Positions 38,316 to 52,367 of a stretch of DNA of 64,000 nucleotides are shown here, piece after piece (position 1 is the stretch's first letter; the number at the start of each line of letters is the position of its first letter). This stretch comes from Pseudomonadota bacterium (GTDB lineage: Bacteria; Bdellovibrionota_B; Oligoflexia; Silvanigrellales; Silvanigrellaceae). The position numbers and the translations under genes were made by a program. The notes beneath the pieces are model-generated. The model ran no database searches. It was given only the letters and a program-made list of their open reading frames with translations, and had not been told where the DNA came from. The stretch spans positions 9,765-73,764 of the forward strand of contig JBDLRP010000006.1 in assembly GCA_039799905.1 (NCBI GenBank), given 5' to 3'.

Positions 38316-39326
38316 GTGGCTAAGTCGATCTCACGAAAATCATTGGGGCATCGGGTCGCTGGCGGGCAACCGCACGATCAGTCATTGCTCGTGACCTTTT
38401 GGGGCGTCCGAGGCACTCTGCCAGCTGCCGGCGCAGACTTCGTAGAGTTTGGAGGCAACACGTCTGCCGTCGAGATTTCGACCGCGGACGGGGCGAATGA
38501 GGCGGCATCGACCTCACTCATTCTGGATGCGGGTACAGGAATAGTTCAGTACGGAGAACGCGGGCTGTCGCTCGGACGGCGCTCGTTCCACATTTTGCTG
38601 AGCCACTTCCACTACGACCATATTATGGGTCTGACGAGATTTTCGCCGCTTTTTAAAAATGACGTGGATATCCACTTCTACGGTCAGGCGAAGGGCGGTC
38701 TCGAACTCCACACGATCATTGAGAAAATTTTTTCATTCCCATTCTTTCCTGTGGAATACCGGCACCTGCCATCGCGAAATAATTTGTACTTTCATACAGT
38801 TGTGCCAGGTTCGCCATTCGAGGTTGGCTCGCTCGTCGTGATCGCGCACAACCTCCACCATCCACAACAGGCTGTTGCGTATAGGGTTTGGGACAAGGAC
38901 CTCAGAGTGAGTGTCGTCTATGCAACCGACCATGAACACGGGACGGATGCTGACCTCTCGCTTGCTGCTTTTTCACGCAACACTAACTTATTTCTTTTCG
39001 ACACCACTTACACCGACGAGGTCTATCAAAACGGCCGGATTGGTTGGGGGCATTCAACCGCTCGCCGCGGGGCCGAGATCGCCGCAATGGCGGAGGTTCG
39101 TTCGTTTGGACTCTTCCACCACGACCCAGAAGCAACTGACGTCCAGCTGAAAAGCCAGCTGTTGCCGGAAGCACTCGCTCACTTCCCCTCGTCGTTCCTG
39201 TGTAAGGAAGGGGAATCTATCGAATTGCTCGCCCAGAATGCCGAAGATCAGCTGCCGATGGTGGTTGGCGGAGGGACCCCCATCCGCCGGACACTTCTCA
39301 GCAAACGGAGAAAAATCAGCGGTTGA
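38316..39326 (+). CDS. MBL-fold metallohydrolase (phosphodiesterase/RNase Z-like subgroup)
   Basis: FWGVRGT, GGNTS, DAGTG, SHFHYDH, TDHEH, GWGHST and FHHDP. Confidence 0.9.
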   Translation: MAKSISRKSLGHRVAGGQPHDQSLLVTFWGVRGTLPAAGADFVEFGGNTSAVEISTADGANEAASTSLILDAGTGIVQYGERGLSLGRRSFHILLSHFHYDHIMGLTRFSPLFKNDVDIHFYGQAKGGLELHTIIEKIFSFPFFPVEYRHLPSRNNLYFHTVVPGSPFEVGSLVVIAHNLHHPQQAVAYRVWDKDLRVSVVYATDHEHGTDADLSLAAFSRNTNLFLFDTTYTDEVYQNGRIGWGHSTARRGAEIAAMAEVRSFGLFHHDPEATDVQLKSQLLPEALAHFPSSFLCKEGESIELLAQNAEDQLPMVVGGGTPIRRTLLSKRRKISG

Positions 39327-39393
39327 CCCGCCCAAAAGATTATGGGAAGCCCCAAAGCGTTGCGTTAATACCAACTCTGGGGAAGCATTCGTT

Positions 39394-41394
39394 TTGACGC
39401 CTGACCACGCCTCATCCAATACAAAACAGACCGACTCAGGCAAACGCGGCCCGTCAGCCCGTACATCCGAGAGACCCTCACACAAATTTCCGATCAGTCA
39501 GTCGCAACGGCCGGCATGGATTACCAAACAGCCGCGCAGTCTGCAGTTTATCTTTTTTGATTTGGAAACGACGGGCGGGAATCCATCAAACAGCGAAGTC
39601 ATCGAGATTGCGGCCATCAAGGAACGTGATGGAAAAGTCATTGGCCGCTTCCAGACGCTCATCAACCCACGCAGACACATTCCGCGGCCGGTGCGAGAAA
39701 TAACGGGCATCGATCAATCCATGGTGCGCGATGCGCCGGTCATCGAGGACGTCATTGACGAGCTCATGGAATTTGTCGGCGACAGCATCCTCGTTTCTCA
39801 CGGCGTGCTGAACGACTTTTCATTTATTGCGCATTACGCGCGCAAGCTGCGGGCAAAAGAGCTTCCGAATTTTTACGTCTGCACGCACTTACTTGTCTCC
39901 AACTTCATGCCCAATATTCCCGTCAAGAGCCTTTCGGGTGTGGCAAGTTACTTCGGGCTTAATGTCGGCAACGCACACCGCGCGATGGCCGACGCTGAAA
40001 TGACGAGAGATGTCTTCTGGGAAATTCAAAAAGTCTGCGAAAAAAATGGATTCAAATCGTTTGAAGATCTGTTGAAGATTCAAGCAGACAATCAAACGCT
40101 CAACCGGCTCGGTCCCGGATTGCTGTCGCATCATGTCGAAAAGGCACCCAGCACCCCCGGGCTGCTTTACCTTTTCAATTCCTCACGTGAAGTTGCCTAT
40201 ATGTCGGCTACGCCGAACATGAGAAAATCGCTCATGAACGTGACCGAACTGAGCGACGAACGCGACTTCAACCGCCTCTTGGTCGATGTAACAGACTTTA
40301 AATTCGAACGAACGGCACACTTTTTGGCAGCGCTACTGCAGGAAAAGAAGGAACTGAAGAAACTCGAATTGTCAGTCGATCCGCGCAAGTTTGAGGGACG
40401 TGCCGACAACACAGTTCAAATTCTCATCCCCGAGGATTTGCTGAACTACTGGATGGAAAATCCTTCGGCACTGCCGTTTTCCGCTCCCGGAAGAACTCAC
40501 AAAGTTCTCGGTGAAGGCTTTCTTTTAGGCGAAGCGCGCGACGAGAACGCCGAAGACTCTGATTCCAATTCAACGTCGCGCATGGGCCTTCCTGCGGAAG
40601 AACGAAACCTTTACGTCTACGCGCATCCCGAAAACAGCGGTCGGGAAGCTCTGCGTGTGCCGATCCGCAAAACCCGCAGGTTGGTCAATGCTGTCAAGAA
40701 TCCAAAATACAAGGTAACCCGCCTGGCCGACAGCAAGCGTTCGGCAGTGCACATGGGGCACCTCGTTTCTGGAACAGGCTGGTTTTTTGGCCCGGTCGAG
40801 CAACCGAAATCGACACGCAAGAAACTCGATGAACTGCTTGTCGTCTGGCCGTTTCATGACCAAACTCTTCCGCTCGAGTCGCGCGCTGACTACCTGACAC
40901 ACGTCATACACGTTCTTCAGGGCAAGTTTGATGAGGAAATCGAGCGCATCGCGAAAAAGAAGAACTCGGTAAAAAGCATCTTTAATCCGCTGATGCGCAG
41001 ACAACTGAACCAAACGATCGAACTCATCAAGGCCTTCAAGAGCGAAGCATACGACCTGCCGTTGACAGCACGTCCGAAATCCGGCCTCGCAGTTCTGACA
41101 AACAACGACACAAAAGAACTCGATGTGGCTATCGTAGTGGGCGGCCGTATCCGCCAGCAACTCAGACTTCCCACCGAAGAGGCCGACAAACTCCGTTCAA
41201 GGCGATTCTTCACCCGTCTTATGTCGCCCTATCACGAAGATTTGTTCCGCGAAGACGATTGCATCGAATTCAACGAAGATGTCTGCAATGATTTAGAGCT
41301 TTTTGCGCATTGGTTTACAAAAAGACGTGGCGAGGGTGAATGGGTCGACTTCGAAACCCTCGCTCCGCTGTACAACCCAGAAACATCAGAATAA
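39394..41394 (+). CDS. DEDDh 3'-5' exonuclease (DnaQ-like) fused to a degenerate UvrC/Cho-like GIY-YIG region
   Basis: FFDLETTG, SHGVLND and AHRAMADAE, then PSTPGLLYLF..VAYMSAT.NMRK and WFFGPV. Start uncertain (TTG 39394 chosen). Confidence 0.8.
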   Translation: MTPDHASSNTKQTDSGKRGPSARTSERPSHKFPISQSQRPAWITKQPRSLQFIFFDLETTGGNPSNSEVIEIAAIKERDGKVIGRFQTLINPRRHIPRPVREITGIDQSMVRDAPVIEDVIDELMEFVGDSILVSHGVLNDFSFIAHYARKLRAKELPNFYVCTHLLVSNFMPNIPVKSLSGVASYFGLNVGNAHRAMADAEMTRDVFWEIQKVCEKNGFKSFEDLLKIQADNQTLNRLGPGLLSHHVEKAPSTPGLLYLFNSSREVAYMSATPNMRKSLMNVTELSDERDFNRLLVDVTDFKFERTAHFLAALLQEKKELKKLELSVDPRKFEGRADNTVQILIPEDLLNYWMENPSALPFSAPGRTHKVLGEGFLLGEARDENAEDSDSNSTSRMGLPAEERNLYVYAHPENSGREALRVPIRKTRRLVNAVKNPKYKVTRLADSKRSAVHMGHLVSGTGWFFGPVEQPKSTRKKLDELLVVWPFHDQTLPLESRADYLTHVIHVLQGKFDEEIERIAKKKNSVKSIFNPLMRRQLNQTIELIKAFKSEAYDLPLTARPKSGLAVLTNNDTKELDVAIVVGGRIRQQLRLPTEEADKLRSRRFFTRLMSPYHEDLFREDDCIEFNEDVCNDLELFAHWFTKRRGEGEWVDFETLAPLYNPETSE

Positions 41395-42586: not shown

Positions 42587-43705
42587 TTATTTCTTCTTGT
42601 CACCAAAAACCTGCCAGCGTTTTTTCATTTCTGCCGGCGCGGAATTTTCGTCCACCACCTGACTGAGTGGAACACTCTGCGGCGGAGCCGACAGATCGCG
42701 CGCGGTGAATGCGGGATCCACCTCGCTGACCCCGTGTGAATCACGTTCGACCCGAGTGACCCCAATCATTGATTGCGGAAACATCGAATATTCGTGGCCA
42801 TCTCTTGCCACTGAAGGCTGCCCGGCTGCCGCTGACACACTTGTACTGCGCTGCTCTGACTCGCGTCTGGCAGAGTTTGAAAGCGTTTCGGGAACGATCT
42901 CAATCATGCTGAGCGGAACCTCAGTGCTTGAGTAATTTGCGGGGCGATCCGCAGTGTTGTCATCTGGACCAGCCCGACGCGAGCGCTTGATGCGAACGAA
43001 AAGGCCCAGAATGATTCCAGCTCCTACCACCATCGCACCCCAGCGAATCAGTTCTTCTGTTGTCAGTGCTTTTTCTGAGTTGGTTCCTGTCTGGGCGCCC
43101 TTGAAGTCGATGGAAATCATATATGGATAATATAGCTCAAGATTGCGATCGAAATTGAGCCGGTGGTCCGAAAGCGTGATGCGATAGCGAACCTTCTCAT
43201 TTCCAGTGATAAGAATCGCCTGCCCCGCTTCAACGCCATCGGTAGTGAAGGAAACATAATAAAGGAAGGCGCTGCGTCCCGCCGGGAGATCATTGAGAAT
43301 ATTTTTCTGAAAGATCTGAAAGCCTGTTCCCTTGCCATTGTATCGGACAAAACTATCTTCAATTTCCTTCGCGACTTCCTCAAGACCTTCAGGGGTAAAT
43401 GACACAGGCTTGCGCACGGCCGCAACAGTTATGCTCGGGTCCGCAATCATACCTTTGGGCAATTTGATTCTGTCGGCCTTCAGTGAAGGCTTGAGTGTCA
43501 CGGCGTATCTCTGCGACGAAGGTTCGGCCCTCCACTTGGGTGGAATTTTGATTGTAAATTCGAGTCCAGCTTCGCTGTGTTGGTAGACGTCTGTAGAAGC
43601 TGGCGTCGACTGTGAAAAAGCGGGCAGCGCAAAAGACAAGGCCGCTGCAACAAGCAAAGACCAAGCAGTCTTGAACAAAGAATTTTTCAAAACCTCAGAC
43701 GGCAT
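42587..43705 (-). CDS. Hypothetical single-pass membrane protein (exported PsbP-like domain, TM helix, disordered tail)
   Basis: Signal peptide ending AFS, FTIKIPPKW and TM WGAMVVGAGIILGLFV-RIKRSRR. Start overlaps the end of the upstream gene. Confidence 0.65.
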   Translation of the reverse strand: MPSEVLKNSLFKTAWSLLVAAALSFALPAFSQSTPASTDVYQHSEAGLEFTIKIPPKWRAEPSSQRYAVTLKPSLKADRIKLPKGMIADPSITVAAVRKPVSFTPEGLEEVAKEIEDSFVRYNGKGTGFQIFQKNILNDLPAGRSAFLYYVSFTTDGVEAGQAILITGNEKVRYRITLSDHRLNFDRNLELYYPYMISIDFKGAQTGTNSEKALTTEELIRWGAMVVGAGIILGLFVRIKRSRRAGPDDNTADRPANYSSTEVPLSMIEIVPETLSNSARRESEQRSTSVSAAAGQPSVARDGHEYSMFPQSMIGVTRVERDSHGVSEVDPAFTARDLSAPPQSVPLSQVVDENSAPAEMKKRWQVFGDKKK

Positions 43706-45245
43706 ACTGCAGGGCCTCAGGCTGATGGACAAGTCTCAAAGAGCGCTCCACTGCACGCACCACGTCTTCACTTGTCTCGGGATCGACATCGAGAAAGAAC
43801 ACAGGTGATTGCGCAGAAAAATTCTCACATCCAAAAAAGTCGAGCATGGCAGTTGTCTCTCTGCCGAGCTGCAGATCGAGCGGTGTCTCGAGCTCCTGAT
43901 AGCGGCCGACACAAACCGCAAGTCCGTACCGAGAGTCAGGTGTGACGTCACTGAGAGTGCACATGACACCGACCACTTGTTGTTGACCTGTGCGCCAGTC
44001 CTCGCTGCCGAATCGACGCGCAACAAGAACCAGGTCACCCTTGTGCACGGAGTCGGGGCTTCTCATCAGAAGGTTTGCATGTTTGCGAAAATTACCAACG
44101 TCGTTGTCATCAACGGAAAGAATCCATGCGCGCGGCAGGGCTGCTTCAACTGAGGAAGCACTTTTAGCTGTATTTTTTCGCCAGTCATTGGCGTGTCCGG
44201 GTTCGGCAAGTTCGCTCAGAGCAAGGCGCAGAGGCGCTTCGGAAAGACCAAGTTTCTCGGCAGCAACGATTGCGGCTGAAATCGCCTTGACCGCCTCTTC
44301 TCGATGCTCCTCCATCCGGTAGCGTTCGTAAAGGCGCTTGCACAACGCGCCAAATGTCGCGCTGTAGTCATAGTCGTTCTGCTCAAACAAGCTGGCGGAA
44401 GACAGCAAAATATCCCGTGCCGCAAGAAGATCACCGGTCTTTTCGAGGCAACTTGCCAGCGCGATCAATGCATCGGTGTTCTCTGGATTGTCGGCGACGA
44501 GTTCCTGAAGAACACGAACTGCCTCGCTCCAATGCCCTTGTGCGACAGCAAGCCGTGCAGCTCCCCAGAATGGCTCTGGACAGCGCGGGAATCTTTCATG
44601 GATAAGTTCAAACGCGCGCGAAGCTTCCTCAAGATAATCATTTTCCAGCGCATAAATCAGATAATTTCGCGCAAGAAAATAATTTCTGGAATTTCTCACA
44701 TTGAGGGCCTGCAAATATTGCAGACCCTTTTCGCGGCGAAGACGCTGTGGCGATTCGGCATTGAAGACGGCAACCGCCTCTACATGCAGAATGCTCTTTC
44801 GCGCCGATGTTGCATTCAGAGATTTGATGATTTTGCTGCTGAAGCGACGCTCGCCGGAATAGGCAAGCGCCATAACGGCGAGCGGAAGGAAACCCTTCGA
44901 GGAGTGGCGGAGACTGATAAGGTGGCGCGCGAGCGCTTTGAGGCCAGTGAAATTGTATTCACTGCGCAGCGATTCAATCCAGAACCTGTAAAACCGGTAG
45001 GTGGCTCGGAATCCGCAGCCGGCTGCGATGATTCGAGAGGAAAGGTCTTCAACCTGATCCCAAGCTCCCTTCCAGAAGAGTAGCTCGCAGCATCTCGTTG
45101 CGTCCTTCAACTGCTCGACTGTCAGGTGGCCTCTGAGTAGTCCCCGCTCGACACGTTCAAGCAACGGTGCGATCTCCGGATTGAACGTTCCCGACGCACT
45201 GAGATTTGCATGAGGATAAAATCTGTTTCCACGGCGCTCACCCAT
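43695..45245 (-). CDS. TPR protein with a C-terminal EVE/PUA-like domain
   Basis: TPR helices such as WSEAVRVLQELVADNPENTDALIALA, and C-terminal WIL...KGDLVLV...VVGV...SDVTPD...LETPLDL. ATG after AAGGAG. Confidence 0.7.
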   Translation of the reverse strand: MGERRGNRFYPHANLSASGTFNPEIAPLLERVERGLLRGHLTVEQLKDATRCCELLFWKGAWDQVEDLSSRIIAAGCGFRATYRFYRFWIESLRSEYNFTGLKALARHLISLRHSSKGFLPLAVMALAYSGERRFSSKIIKSLNATSARKSILHVEAVAVFNAESPQRLRREKGLQYLQALNVRNSRNYFLARNYLIYALENDYLEEASRAFELIHERFPRCPEPFWGAARLAVAQGHWSEAVRVLQELVADNPENTDALIALASCLEKTGDLLAARDILLSSASLFEQNDYDYSATFGALCKRLYERYRMEEHREEAVKAISAAIVAAEKLGLSEAPLRLALSELAEPGHANDWRKNTAKSASSVEAALPRAWILSVDDNDVGNFRKHANLLMRSPDSVHKGDLVLVARRFGSEDWRTGQQQVVGVMCTLSDVTPDSRYGLAVCVGRYQELETPLDLQLGRETTAMLDFFGCENFSAQSPVFFLDVDPETSEDVVRAVERSLRLVHQPEALQYAV

Positions 45246-45377
45246 ATGTCTCACTCCTTCCGGCTATCCTGAGGATATCAACCGGTGAAACTATCGGTGA
45301 GAAACAAAACTTCACTGAGAGCGTTCACGTCAAAGACATTTGCCGGGATGAAAAGACGGGCAGGCAATTCGGTTCAA

Positions 45378-47840
45378 TCAGAACTCAACAACCTGATCTG
45401 CAAAGCGAAGAAACTCCTCGCGGTTCTCCAGGACGATAAAGCTTGCACCACGGGAAACCATCATGCGCAGAAGTCGGCCGAGTGTGGAAATGTCGGGAGT
45501 GTGCAATCCGGTGCCAGGGTGAAGAAGCAAAAACCATGCTCCTTCAAGTTGAGCTCGGCGCAATTCGAGGGTCAGTGTCAGCCGTTGTAGTTCTCCACCG
45601 CTCAACGAATCCATTCCCTGTCCCAACGTCACATAGCCAAGGCCAAATTCGAGGGCAGCGGCAAGCCTGTTTTCCACAAGCCGGACGTGGGCAAAAAATT
45701 GCCGCGCCTCGTCGAGAGTCAGATTCATGATTTCTGCAAGATTCAGGCCTTTGAATCGGGGAACCAGACTGCGCTGTGCAAGCTTTGTTCCCAAACATTC
45801 CTCACAACTGACTTCTACCGGCGGACCATATCGTTGCGGAATTTCGATGTATCCGCGCCCTTCACAGGATGTGCAGCGCCCGGCTTTTGAATTCCATGAA
45901 AAATGTGATGGTGTCAGGCCCATAATTTGCGCCTGCGGCAACTGAGCAAAGATCTCGCGTATGGGAACAAGAATATCGAGCGCCGCGGCAACTGTGCGCC
46001 TTGATGTGCGCACAAGGCTGCCGGGGCGGACGTCATGGAGCGAATTTACCAGCAGCGGCCCCTCAGGCCGAAGTCGACAGAATTCCAGTTGCCGCGTTTC
46101 AGGCGAATCCATTTCGATAATTTTTTCAAGCGCGGGCCAAACGCACAACTCAAGAAAGGATCCTTTGCCACGCCCCGCCTCGCCGCGGATGAGAGTGAGG
46201 CTTGATTGAGGCAATCGAATGGAGGCCTTGCTCGCCGTGCGTACTTTGATGTTTTCCAGAATAAGTGCCGCTGGTTCGTTTTTTTCAGATGTGTCGGCAG
46301 CCTTGCTCTTACGACCGCGCAAGGGAGCAAGACTTGGCCGCAGAAAATATGATGCCGGATTGTTTTCAACAGTGGACTCGAACAAGGCCTTTTCTTTTGC
46401 AAGTAACATTTTATCGATGTCGGCTTGCCCTTTGAAATGCTCGACAATCCGACCGCCCAGTCGACCCGCACCCGGACCCATCAAAAAAACTTCGTCACAG
46501 TGTTTGAGAAATTGTGGATGATGCTCAACCACAACGACTGACGAGCCGGTTTCGACAAGGTGACGCAGGACAACGACGAGTTGGCCGACCTCGGCACTTG
46601 TGAGCCCCTGACAAGGTTCGTCCATTATATAGAGTGCACCGCGCAGGCGATTGGAAATCATCGAGGCAAGCCTGAGACGCTGCAGATCTCCGGGCGACAA
46701 GCTCCCACCATCGCGGTTGAGATTCAAATGATTCAAACCCAGTTGACACATTGTTTCAACGAGTCTGACGGCTTCGGACAAAACCTGATTTTTTGCGCGC
46801 TGTCCGCCGGCGTCAGTGACAAAAGTACTGTTGAGCTCGAGCAAAAGGTCGGCCAATTTCAACTGGTGCAATTCTTCAAAGCGAAGACTACGCACACGGA
46901 CAATCGGTCGGTTTGGATCAAGCCGCGTGCCCGAACATTTTTTACACGGGTACAGGTCCGCCGGTAATTCCTCATCCTGCGCGCCGGTGCCGGCACATGT
47001 TCCGCACTGTGCAAGCGACGAGTGGCTGAAGTAGCGGGGATCCAGACGTGGAGCACTTTCTCCGCACTGAGGACATGCTGATTTGGTATTGAATTTTTCA
47101 AATGCTGACTTGTTCTCGATCTTGACAACGCCCTTGCCGTATTCGATCGCCTGCGAAACAGCGCGTTCGAGTCGAGCCTGCCGTTCAGGAACAACCTGGA
47201 CGGCATCAATCAAAACCTCAATGGTGTTGAGCTTCTTTGCATCAATAGTGATTTTTTGATCGTCATCCTGAAGGGAATAGCTCTCTCCGTTGATACGAAT
47301 GCGCGAAAAACCGAGTTGGCGAAATTTCTCAATTTCACTTCCGAATGCACCCTTGCGCTTTTCTACAATAGGAGCCGTGATGGTTATTTTTTCGCCGCTA
47401 TACAGCTCAGAGATTTTCGCCATCAATTCACGGAATGTCGTGGCCCGCAGCGGAATGTCACAGTTGCGACAATGAACGTCACCAAAAGCTGCAAAGTAAA
47501 CACGCAACAGATCGCTCACACCTGAGATTGTTCCGACCGTTGAGAGCTTTCCTGCGACGCCCTGACGCTGCGACAAACCCAGAGCTGGCGGCAGACCGCG
47601 GATGGCGCGAAATTTGGGGCGGACCGTTCTCGACCAAAAGGAATGCCCCATCAGCTGGACAGGTGCATGGCTAGCGTCGGCGAACCGGCGAAATGCTTCA
47701 ACATAAAGCGTATCAAAGACGAGACTCGATTTTCCCGACCCGCTGACACCCGTGAAGGCAATGAGCTTGTTCTTGGGAATTCCGACATCGACGGACTGCA
47801 AATTGTGCTCATGTGCACCTTTTACCTCGATCGTCTGCAT
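45378..47840 (-). CDS. UvrA-like ABC ATPase, divergent
   Basis: KGAHEHNL, TGVSGSGKSSL, STVGTIS, Zn-finger cysteine pairs, FSWNSKAGRC and LGLGYVTLGQ..LSGGELQR. Confidence 0.9.
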   Translation of the reverse strand: MQTIEVKGAHEHNLQSVDVGIPKNKLIAFTGVSGSGKSSLVFDTLYVEAFRRFADASHAPVQLMGHSFWSRTVRPKFRAIRGLPPALGLSQRQGVAGKLSTVGTISGVSDLLRVYFAAFGDVHCRNCDIPLRATTFRELMAKISELYSGEKITITAPIVEKRKGAFGSEIEKFRQLGFSRIRINGESYSLQDDDQKITIDAKKLNTIEVLIDAVQVVPERQARLERAVSQAIEYGKGVVKIENKSAFEKFNTKSACPQCGESAPRLDPRYFSHSSLAQCGTCAGTGAQDEELPADLYPCKKCSGTRLDPNRPIVRVRSLRFEELHQLKLADLLLELNSTFVTDAGGQRAKNQVLSEAVRLVETMCQLGLNHLNLNRDGGSLSPGDLQRLRLASMISNRLRGALYIMDEPCQGLTSAEVGQLVVVLRHLVETGSSVVVVEHHPQFLKHCDEVFLMGPGAGRLGGRIVEHFKGQADIDKMLLAKEKALFESTVENNPASYFLRPSLAPLRGRKSKAADTSEKNEPAALILENIKVRTASKASIRLPQSSLTLIRGEAGRGKGSFLELCVWPALEKIIEMDSPETRQLEFCRLRPEGPLLVNSLHDVRPGSLVRTSRRTVAAALDILVPIREIFAQLPQAQIMGLTPSHFSWNSKAGRCTSCEGRGYIEIPQRYGPPVEVSCEECLGTKLAQRSLVPRFKGLNLAEIMNLTLDEARQFFAHVRLVENRLAAALEFGLGYVTLGQGMDSLSGGELQRLTLTLELRRAQLEGAWFLLLHPGTGLHTPDISTLGRLLRMMVSRGASFIVLENREEFLRFADQVVEF

Positions 47841-47987
47841 TTTGCCTGTTTCCTCCGCCGTCCCAACATTGACGCTGTGCGCACTATATCAGAGTCGGGT
47901 ACGATTGAAGTGTCTCCCGAGGGGAGAATTATTGGGGCGTTGTAACGGAGGCTCTGCTGTCCGGTATGACCAGAGACGGATAAAAAA

Positions 47988-49151
47988 ATGATGAACGGTC
48001 AAACAAAAATGGCGAGCCCGGACGTGTCAAAACAAGTCGACTTTCAGGCAATTCTCAAAGCCCATGAACAGGGTCTGAATCAGAACGAAGGCAAACTCAG
48101 CCTCATTGCAGGTGATGCGAGTGACCGCAAATTCTATCGCCTCGAGTCGGAAGGCTTGAATGCAATTTGTATGAAGTTTCCCAAGTGGGACGGCGGTTAC
48201 GGCGGTGATCCGCTGAGTTGGCTCGGAATGCACTCAGCATTGATCGGCATCGGAATCCCGGTACCGCAGATACTTTTTGTCGACGAGAAAAACCACTGCA
48301 TCTGGACAGAAGATTTCGGCGATCATTTTCTCAATTGCAACCTCGGCAACAGGGTTCTCGATGAACTTGATCCGGAGTGCAAAACGACTCTGGCTCTCTA
48401 CAAAGAGGCTCTCGAACTTTTGGTCCACGTGCAATATCCGCGCCGACATCTGCTGAACCATCCGGCGCAGGAGAGGTCATTCGATTTCGAAAAACTGATG
48501 TTCGAGATGAATTTTTTCATCACCCATTTCATTAAGGGATGGCTAGGTTTGCCATTCACCGAAAGCGACCCGCGTGACCGCGATCTGCTCAGGGAACTTG
48601 AATCTCTGTGCACCCTGTTGCAGGGAGCAGAACGGGTTCTGTGTCACCGCGATTATCACGTGCGCAACGTGATGGTTGTCGCCGGAAGCGTCAAATGGAT
48701 TGATTTTCAAGACGCACGGATGGGTCCGCACACCTACGACGTCGTCAGTCTGCTGCGCGACAGTTACACGCGCATCACACCCTCGACCCGCTCGTCATTG
48801 TTGAAATTCTATGGCGCCAAGGTGAACGAGGCACGCACGCGGGCTGGCAAGGCATCGATGAGCAACGAAGAACTCTTTCACGAGGCGTCACTGATGGGAT
48901 TGCAACGCAACGTCAAGGCGCTCGGTAGCTTTGGCTATCTCGCAACCCAGAAACAGAAGACCTCGTACCTGAAGTACATCGGCTCCACCATCGAAACGAT
49001 TCTTGCAGATGATTTTTCACGACAGGCAGGAATGAGGATCGCAGACGCATTTCCGGCGACGATTGAATTTCTTCGCGATGTTGTCCAAGGCCGCTGGAAG
49101 GCATTGTTTGAAGCGAAACTCAGGGCCTATGGTATCAACGAAACCTTTTGA
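47988..49151 (+). CDS. amgK: AmgK-like anomeric MurNAc/GlcNAc kinase (APH family)
   Basis: AGDASDRKFYR, HRDYHVRN and IDFQDARMGP..YDVVSLLRD. Confidence 0.8.
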   Translation: MMNGQTKMASPDVSKQVDFQAILKAHEQGLNQNEGKLSLIAGDASDRKFYRLESEGLNAICMKFPKWDGGYGGDPLSWLGMHSALIGIGIPVPQILFVDEKNHCIWTEDFGDHFLNCNLGNRVLDELDPECKTTLALYKEALELLVHVQYPRRHLLNHPAQERSFDFEKLMFEMNFFITHFIKGWLGLPFTESDPRDRDLLRELESLCTLLQGAERVLCHRDYHVRNVMVVAGSVKWIDFQDARMGPHTYDVVSLLRDSYTRITPSTRSSLLKFYGAKVNEARTRAGKASMSNEELFHEASLMGLQRNVKALGSFGYLATQKQKTSYLKYIGSTIETILADDFSRQAGMRIADAFPATIEFLRDVVQGRWKALFEAKLRAYGINETF

Positions 49152-50878: not shown

Positions 50879-51014
50879 TCCGTCATGACTTCTGTCACCC
50901 GTTTAATCATGCCCATCTTGAGCTGTCTAGCAAGTGTCCCGTACGCTTGATTGAGCAAGAGTGTGCTGAACCCTCCGAATCAAGCGGGCTGAATTAGATT
51001 GGGGAGTCTTGAAT

Positions 51015-52367
51015 ATGCAACAAAAGGAACTTCAGGGAATCGTCTTGTGCGCAGGCCTAGGCACCCGACTTAGGCCACTGACGTCGGTCGTTCCCAAACC
51101 CGCCGTTCCAGTCGGTCCGGTGCCGGCAGCGCTCAGAAACATAGAACAAATGCTGGATTCAGGAATGTCCCTGGTTCACTGCAACACGCATTACCTGGCC
51201 CAAGAGCTCGAGAACGAGCTGCAGGCTGCGTGTCTGTCGCGATCCATCAGTCCCGATAGAATCAGATTTTGGAACGAGACCGATTTGTTAGAAACGGGTG
51301 GTGGCATTGCACGCATCGTGCATGCACTTGCAAGTGAAAAGGGGCGTTCCGAGATTCCTGACACCATGGTGGTCTCGGGCGATATCGTTGCTGACATCCC
51401 TATTGAGAAGATGAGAGAACTCTGGAGCGGGCGGGAGTCAAGTTGCACGACACTCATGGTCAGTCTTCCGCTCGACAGACCCAGAAAGGACGTCACTTGG
51501 GTGGATTTGGAAAACCGACGCGTACGCGGTTTTGGCACAGACTTTGATGAGGCGACCGCCAACTCGCGCGGACTCAGCGCACGGGTTTTTTCAAATCATC
51601 AGATTCTTTCGGGGACCATTCTCGAACGGCAGGGCATCGAAAAAAAATCCAGCATAGATTTGTTTTACAGAAGCGCGCTGCGTTTGGGTGAAGAGATAAT
51701 TCATCTGCCGTGGAGCCCAAACGCACAGTGGTTCGACATCGGAACTCCCGCGTCCTATTTGCACTGCGCAAGCTTGCTTAAGCAACCCATGACCCCACGC
51801 ATGAGTGATCACAGCTTGAGCAGAATTTCTCTTCTTTTGCCTTCCTCTGAAGACATCGAAAGTGATCAGGCAGACAACCCAAGCATGATCAGACACGATC
51901 GTCCGAGAGCAGGAGTGAATAGCTTTGCGCAGTTTTGCCTACGCAAGACAACGCAAGATTCAAAATGGTGCTGGCTGGGTGAACTGCACTCTCTGACTGC
52001 TCAGCTGGCCGCCGCACTCGATCTCATCTTATGCTCTGCTCTTTCTGATGGTGTGTCCGGAAAAGGACCAGATGATTCCGCTCAGGGGGATTATTTCTTA
52101 CACACTCTGGAGGATTTCTCTCTCCAGCGGCCTACGGCCTCGATGCATGCCCCGCTTGATCTTTCGAGGCTTGAAAATTGTGAGGGTTTCCTCACTGCCA
52201 GATTGCCTTCAACTCACACTTCATTCGCCCGGCTGCAGACCCCGCTCCTCGTATCGCTCGATCTTCTTCTCGGGGCCGGCACTCGCCTCACTCACAACTC
52301 GCTCAGTCAAGACTCTCTTTCACAATTCTGGATTCTCTTCATTCCGCAGAAGCTGTCAGCTGGCTGA
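51015..52367 (+). CDS. MurU-like sugar-1-phosphate nucleotidyltransferase with long C-terminal extension
   Basis: LCAGLGTRLRPLT..PKP, NTHYLA, LLETGGG and WFDIGTP. Confidence 0.8.
   Translation: MQQKELQGIVLCAGLGTRLRPLTSVVPKPAVPVGPVPAALRNIEQMLDSGMSLVHCNTHYLAQELENELQAACLSRSISPDRIRFWNETDLLETGGGIARIVHALASEKGRSEIPDTMVVSGDIVADIPIEKMRELWSGRESSCTTLMVSLPLDRPRKDVTWVDLENRRVRGFGTDFDEATANSRGLSARVFSNHQILSGTILERQGIEKKSSIDLFYRSALRLGEEIIHLPWSPNAQWFDIGTPASYLHCASLLKQPMTPRMSDHSLSRISLLLPSSEDIESDQADNPSMIRHDRPRAGVNSFAQFCLRKTTQDSKWCWLGELHSLTAQLAAALDLILCSALSDGVSGKGPDDSAQGDYFLHTLEDFSLQRPTASMHAPLDLSRLENCEGFLTARLPSTHTSFARLQTPLLVSLDLLLGAGTRLTHNSLSQDSLSQFWILFIPQKLSAG

Follow-up and report, generated by a model that had tools for sequence, protein, structure and literature searches.

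A UvrA-family protein of Silvanigrellaceae with a degenerate distal ATPase site and no insertion domain: a probable support subunit of an asymmetric UvrA pair

Introduction

What role is left to a UvrA-family protein in which one of the two ATPase sites is degenerate and the insertion domain is missing? This question is raised by a gene in a 64,000-nucleotide window from a Silvanigrellaceae genome (the window being the whole stretch of DNA analysed; positions are counted within it unless a contig is named). An earlier note on this DNA had read the product as a half-pseudo-ATPase with a changed sensing role. In the literature outside subscription journals, we found no account of a natural UvrA without an insertion domain, of a UvrA heterodimer, or of UvrA in this bacterial class.

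Results

The protein, its motifs and its fold

The gene, listed among the open reading frames of this genome, starts with ATG and encodes an 820-residue protein, P0001 (uvrA subunit 'B'), whose features are collected in Table 1. Its translation agrees with the earlier description of the reading frame and of all eight motifs, and their assignment to a proximal site (ATP-binding domain I with signature II) and a distal site (ATP-binding domain II with signature I) is that given in PMC12796330.

Table 1. Features of the P0001 gene and its upstream region
Feature	Position	Strand	Basis or remark
P0001, uvrA subunit 'B'	45378..47840	-	no insertion domain, degenerate distal site, short C-terminus
Walker A1 (proximal) GVSGSGKS, residues 31-38, intact	47727..47750	-	GxSGSGKS in 26/26 orthologues
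Wedge / dimer-axis helix, residues 58-70	47631..47669	-	alignment, structure model
UvrB-binding domain, residues ~130-250	47091..47453	-	Pfam, residue comparison
16-residue loop instead of ~110-residue insertion (DNA-binding) domain	46947..46994	-	alignments, Pfam, independent contig
Signature 1 (distal) LSPGD, residues 381-385	46686..46700	-	xPGD in 25/26 orthologues
Walker B1 (proximal) YIMDEP, residues 404-409, intact	46614..46631	-	DEP in 26/26
H-loop 1 (proximal) VEHH, residues 438-441, intact	46518..46529	-	26/26 orthologues
Walker A2 (distal) GEAGRGKG, residues 553-560; Lys present, Ser/Thr absent here	46161..46184	-	
Signature II domain and zinc-3 hairpin	45561..46010	-	among best conserved P0001 parts
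Signature 2 (proximal) LSGGE, residues 746-750, intact	45591..45605	-	within signature II domain
Walker B2 (distal) FLLLHP, residues 770-775; Asp-Glu replaced, His at catalytic Glu	45516..45533	-	26/26
H-loop 2 (distal) VLENR, residues 803-807; Asn for His	45420..45434	-	26/26
Ribosome-binding-site-like GGAGGA	47851..47856	-	upstream of P0001 gene
Conserved two-part upstream element, candidate promoter or regulator site	47869..47891	-	spacer to divergent amgK-like gene

The zinc-module cysteines 124/127, 256/259, 279/282, 299/302, 656/659 and 679/682 are present, giving three zinc modules, and only 16 residues lie between the intact pairs 279/282 and 299/302. Cysteine spacing is thus 20 in P0001, as against 123 in the genome's other UvrA (P0002, described below) and 114-139 in canonical copies; alignments to solved UvrAs skip about 95-115 template residues where P0001 runs from about residue 292 to about 298, and no match to the insertion-domain family PF17755 was found in P0001 with Pfam. 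The insertion domain is therefore missing, as had been claimed from an estimated remnant of about 15 residues. The distal Q-loop Gln is replaced by Pro; in the wedge the equivalents of Tyr62 and Gln65 are replaced next to a four-residue insertion, and model confidence is low at residues 65-71; the C-terminus falls about 39 residues short of the canonical end, with the second Gly-rich loop gone.

The UvrB-binding region had been described as kept. This holds for the domain (PF17760, 88.9 bits), which is folded in the model and has Lys159-Gly160, Arg176, Asp205 and Arg216, but not for all of its residues, as Arg206 is absent and Asp219 is Arg, the state of 32/36 orthologues. The best structural match of the single-chain model (pLDDT 85.6) is the class I UvrA 3uwx (TM 0.74), which suggests that an ABC fold is retained in the altered second domain. 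The dimer-contact residues of the set in PMC12796330 (Arg54, Phe66, the Gly80-Ala84 stretch and Leu507) are largely present. P0001 falls below the family cut-offs of both TIGR00630 (549.8 of 729.8 bits) and PRK00349 (550.8 of 1147 bits).

Conservation, selection and the order of loss

We aligned 26 orthologues, comprising that of the genome itself, 24 from its family and one from another family of the order. In all 26, Walker B2 has His and no Asp-Glu and the distal H-loop His is Asn, while proximal Walker A1, DEP and VEHH are kept throughout, so that the loss falls on the distal site alone and is not random decay, as the earlier note had argued. Had the gene decayed in one lineage, or been misassembled, close relatives might keep DEP/GKS; within the order a distal DEP was found in 0/26. 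Walker A2, also listed as damaged, is so in part: the Ser/Thr after the Lys is lost in 13/26 only, and the Lys itself is present in 26/26. The equivalent of Arg480, a residue tied to distal nucleotide binding in PMC6486640, is invariant in 43/43 sequences. Since the Lys and the Arg480 equivalent are both retained, the evidence favours a non-hydrolysing distal site over an empty one, and the P0001 distal site may bind nucleotide but not hydrolyse it.

An orthologue, partial in one case, was found in 33/33 family genomes searched, with Silvanigrellaceae, Silvanigrella and Oligoflexia among the sources of close orthologues. Among the 7 of 12 genus relatives used, uncorrected pN/pS values were 0.018/0.48 for the nearest genome and 0.12-0.15/0.71-0.79 for the other six, and pN was 0-0.08 in the last 60 residues, which include the dead Walker B and H-loop; this is the purifying selection on the distal substitutions for which the earlier note had proposed to look. 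Contigs from three other DNA runs differ from the P0001 gene by substitutions only, and one of them, assembled in another study, covers 46477-47827 and crosses the deletion without a gap. The shared substitutions in 26/26 together with purifying selection rule out a pseudogene, and the independent contigs, one gapless across the deletion, rule out misassembly. One RNA run yielded a single 206-base piece, which has no bearing on expression.

P0001 and its class-wide relatives form one clade (support 0.999). None of the relatives has the insertion, all carry Arg at the distal Q-loop (19/19), and most of them retain the distal Asp-Glu and His together with the wedge and C-terminal loop. Judged from these alignments, loss is stepwise, the insertion going first, in the class, and distal catalysis, wedge and C-terminal loop later, on the long stem of the order; on the same comparison, only this order of freshwater bacteria has lost distal catalysis in full and the C-terminal loop with it. 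Tyr62 of the wedge probes DNA, and ATP-dependent UvrB loading depends on it (PMC12796330); the distal site, like the insertion domain, serves damage discrimination (PMC7835731; PMC3025350). Wedge, distal site and insertion domain are thus sensing elements, and P0001 is without all three, with the proximal site left. The proposed change in sensing role treats P0001 alone, and a support role within a pair fits better.

Gene surroundings

A consensus scan found no promoter at the P0001 gene start. The two-part upstream element (Table 1) is conserved among members of the genus and can still be recognised in the family's other genera, and a loose pattern of it has just four matches in the genome. 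Across 40 synteny loci of the order, many of them too short to show these neighbours, a TPR-repeat gene downstream (43695-45254, minus strand) is in place at 32, an amgK-like gene upstream (47988-49151, plus strand) at 34, and a murU-like gene further upstream (51009-52367, plus strand) at 15. The TPR protein matched no named family. Elsewhere in the window (39238-41394, plus strand) a 718-residue DEDD exonuclease has a long C-terminal part without a family match.

The partner and the excision-repair set

The earlier note had asked whether the genome holds a canonical uvrA elsewhere. The genome (93.8% complete) has only one other uvrA, P0002 (C13:21114-24008, minus strand), which is complete but divergent and, like P0001, lies below the TIGR00630 cut-off, with 614 bits. 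A single uvrB, one full uvrC and mfd each score over their cut-offs; a second, partial UvrC-like match lies in a 371-residue frame (G000:C32:43944-44615). P0002 has all eight Walker, signature and H-loop motifs, the insertion domain and the hairpin Phe; the wedge Tyr/Gln/Phe and both Q-loops of the partner are kept in 15/15 order members examined. Its UvrB-binding domain gave no Pfam match at 1e-4 and folds in the model with pLDDT 84-94. The two genes are unlinked, being on separate contigs here and about 240 kb apart in genome G023; P0002 directly follows an ABC gene, and no upstream motif is common to the two.

Co-occurrence and rates

Canonical-type matches scoring over 1,140 bits occur in 32/104 genomes of the phylum. 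Within the family, a canonical UvrA occurs in 1/27 genomes and in none of the other 26, and the single-contig genomes G103 and G106 contain the pair and no further uvrA. Among 77 class genomes outside the family, a threshold of E 1e-200 gave both genes in 58, only the P0001 type in 9, only the partner in 6 and neither in 4. Rechecks recovered fragments or divergent copies in nine genomes, raising the count with both genes to 67/77, a tally that takes in family f7, of whose four second genes one was placed in the tree. Three genomes with only one of the genes and three with only the other (85-91% complete) were left, besides the 4/77 with neither assigned, two of which have canonical copies only.

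In genome G021 (L063) and in all four f7 genomes (L077/L078 of G032; G067-G069), both uvrA genes are insertion-less and there is no canonical copy, so that excision repair in these genomes is, on their gene content, without any insertion domain; lending an insertion domain is therefore not the sole reason for a pair. In G070 the orthologue (C6:240079-242580) and a canonical uvrA (C5:90084-92898) are both in frameshifted pieces, through either decay or sequencing error.

Selection acts on both uvrA genes. Across 16 shared genomes, with one control gene, the stem leading to the order makes up 10.8% and 11.1% of tree length for these two genes, as against 3.9% for UvrB: both sped up together on that stem. 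On the same genomes, with pairs that are not independent, the distances of the two uvrA genes correlate at 0.98 (0.90 after removing UvrB), and the rate of P0001 tracks that of its partner (r 0.98) more closely than that of UvrB (r 0.88). UvrBs of the order (L004, L128-L147) often replace acidic domain-2 strand residues that class relatives keep, which is a possible co-change with the UvrA pair.

Fused double-length UvrAs and the ancestry of the pair

The longer relatives found were double-length UvrAs of about 1,700-2,400 residues, which we take to be classes IV/V. They form a known family, NCBIfam PRK00635, with Thermodesulforhabdus norvegica WP_093394543 as an example. In one subfamily (50 doubles, partly redundant and picked by a motif) the insertion is absent from the C half in 46/50 and from the N half in none; in a more diverse set several N halves are insertion-less as well. 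A search of 50% representatives returned, among its best 150, mostly doubles and eight single proteins of the P0001 clade, with no intermediate forms. In 6/121 diverse doubles (one truncated row dropped), a single ATPase site within one half carries at least two substitutions, as independent cases: N halves of P0328, P0349, P0377 and P0378 and C halves of P0336 and P0389. Some doubles consist of two class-II-like halves, and P0123, P0243 and P0244 are UvrA-family proteins of 2,300-2,400 residues, P0123 with five Walker A motifs. One class genome with both single genes also has a fused 1,803-residue UvrA (L094, G045:C5), which groups with doubles from elsewhere and with neither single gene, suggesting transfer or a binning error.

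The partner clade groups with N halves in four larger-set trees (0.999, 100, 93 and 95), weakly in a fifth, and has 16/39 N-specific sites, among them a motif within the insertion, as against 0/11 C-specific sites; by this evidence its origin lies in the N-terminal halves of fused doubles. The P0001 clade has 3/11 C-specific sites and its placement varies. It lies inside the C halves in one tree (100/95) with the Silvanigrellales rows left out, near some C halves in a tree with four such rows (0.72), without a resolved position in a second tree with four, and as sister to partner plus N halves in two trees without them; these rows were left out of the AU tests and of some trees as long branches, and all mixture-model trees were short searches. 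Fission of a fused gene received AU p values of 0.73, 0.47 and 0.09, its main alternatives likewise not being rejected; duplication within the class (0.038, 0.094, 0.089) was rejected once. The swapped assignment, with the halves of P0001 and P0002 exchanged, was rejected (p 0.007). Under LG, on 47 rows that include the UvrB-binding domain, a tree constrained to fission scored about 18 log units below two alternatives, and in profile scores the C halves were closer to the P0001 clade than to the partner in just 23/50 doubles.

The UvrB-binding domain itself differs between the halves. Gly160 is found in 26/26 C halves and 13/14 proteins of the P0001 clade and does not predominate in N halves or partner; Arg206 is found in 25/26 N halves, 9/11 partners and 4/26 C halves, and is not a leading state in the P0001 clade. 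C halves and the P0001 clade thus keep Lys159-Gly160 and His198 and lose Arg206, and the reverse holds for N halves and partner, so that to judge from these residues the domain is divided alike in doubles and in the gene pair, whatever their ancestry. P0001 has the C-half architecture: no insertion, Lys159-Gly160 present and Arg206 absent.

Discussion

P0001 lacks three sensing elements and travels with a UvrA that keeps them, for which a support role in a pair is the better fit. We propose that it is probably the support subunit of an asymmetric heterodimer with P0002, replacing the symmetric dimer, and we somewhat favour an origin of this pair by fission of a fused double-length gene. In the UvrA homodimer the two protomers already behave differently, in that one releases its insertion domain (PMC11985968). 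The heterodimer would form through ATP-binding domain I, as suggested by the contact residues largely kept in P0001, which would contribute one signature-II/zinc-hairpin arm and a functional proximal ATPase as well as a dimer surface. DNA would be held by both signature-II arms and the lesion read by P0002, with the proximal site of P0001 helping to drive the closing step. Its distal site may serve as a nucleotide-bound strut, binding without hydrolysis; in C. thermocellum UvrA, mutation of the distal Walker A leaves both sites empty (PMC12796330), so that an empty distal site goes with an empty proximal one.

One UvrB would then be loaded on a fixed side. Domain score and the analogy to the released protomer point to P0001 as that side, whereas the residues point to the partner, where Arg176, Arg206 and an acidic residue at 219 are present. 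We take these three to be UvrB contacts, Asp219 forming a salt bridge to an arginine of UvrB or Mfd. Docking on the UvrB-binding domain of the partner together with signature II of P0001, which as one of the best conserved parts of P0001 fits a second UvrB contact, seems slightly the better bet; docking on the UvrB-binding domain of P0001 itself is less likely, and use of both domains improbable.

Several observations sit less easily with a heterodimer. Binding between the two is deduced from sequence; the partner looks complete and its UvrB-binding domain folds in the model, so it might act as a homodimer; the genes lie apart; six genomes (85-91% complete) have one gene only; and two proteins of one pathway may shift in rate together without touching each other. 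Fission in particular is weakened by the unstable placement of the P0001 clade and its few C-specific sites. If the partner homodimer were the whole sensor, P0001 might have left excision repair or only modulate it, by stripping intercalators in the manner of class II UvrAs or as a dominant brake on the partner. The partner does have every known element, P0001 has lost three sensing elements, and class II UvrAs act without UvrB (PMC9328131); but Ecm16 requires its insertion domain for DNA binding (PMC10192343), the P0001 gene is found in almost all genomes of the class and in synteny with housekeeping genes, and its rate follows the partner more than UvrB, and we consider such a role rather unlikely.

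We likewise think it unlikely that P0001 and its partner divide the work as two homodimers, P0001 serving transcription-coupled repair with Mfd, where lesion finding is not needed, and the partner global repair. Loss of the insertion domain would fit that role, as would a UvrB/Mfd-binding domain that scores well in P0001 and finds no match in the partner; however, Asp219, the presumed salt bridge to UvrB or Mfd, is Arg in P0001, the proximal site, which P0001 keeps, has been published as less important there, and the parallel with the fused doubles is left unexplained. The C. thermocellum distal Walker A mutant, empty at both sites (PMC12796330), also speaks against it. Decay of a spare copy in one lineage, or an assembly error, would account for the long branch and the several lost motifs, but is very improbable given the low pN/pS, the pN of 0-0.08 at the dead Walker B, the orthologue in 33/33 genomes and the agreement of independent contigs.

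The support subunit that we propose can be set beside several known systems. P0001 has the fold of class I UvrAs (G. stearothermophilus 2R6F/3UWX, C. thermocellum 9GXK, M. tuberculosis 9GA3; TM 0.70-0.74), with tandem ABC domains, three zinc sites, the UvrB-binding domain and the proximal site in common, but unlike them it is without the insertion domain and the distal catalytic Glu, His and Gln, and has an altered wedge and a C end shorter by about 39 residues; class I UvrA is a symmetric homodimer, whereas P0001 is likely to be in a heterodimer. Double-length UvrAs (PRK00635) resemble the gene pair in having two unlike units, the C half often insertion-less, but are one chain, whereas P0001 is a single 820-residue unit with a stop codon and an unlinked partner. 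ABC heterodimers with one degenerate site include TAP, TM287/288 and CFTR, which like P0001 keep the Walker A Lys and have the catalytic Glu, switch His and signature changed at one site; these are two-site membrane transporters, and the P0001 pair would be a DNA sensor with one such site of four, so that the likeness is one of analogy only. Class II UvrAs (D. radiodurans UvrA2, Ecm16, DrrC) are, like P0001, UvrA paralogues minus one accessory domain. They are, however, defined in PMC9328131 by a missing UvrB-binding domain and first zinc finger, both of which P0001 has, which places it outside this class, as the earlier note had held of UvrA2. P0001 is neither class I, class II nor a fused double, and most likely works like the C half of a double.

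Our fullest reading, which we offer tentatively, is that excision repair in Oligoflexia relies on an obligate UvrA heterodimer derived by fission of a double-length gene, and that in Silvanigrellales one subunit has since lost lesion sensing and one ATPase, leaving a 'one-eyed' sensor with three ATPases and a fixed side on which a single UvrB is loaded. For annotation there is a practical warning, in that neither uvrA gene passes the UvrA cut-off and the P0001 type is filed as 'hypothetical protein'. It is an open question how the two protomers of UvrA and their four ATPase sites share the work, and whether a single UvrB suffices or two are needed; in a homodimer the answer stays hidden, since any mutation affects both halves. 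The cultured genera Silvanigrella and Fluviispira belong to the family of P0001. If UvrA here is indeed made from two genes, each site and surface could be changed on one side only, and an asymmetry that is passing in cryo-EM of homodimers would be fixed in the genes.
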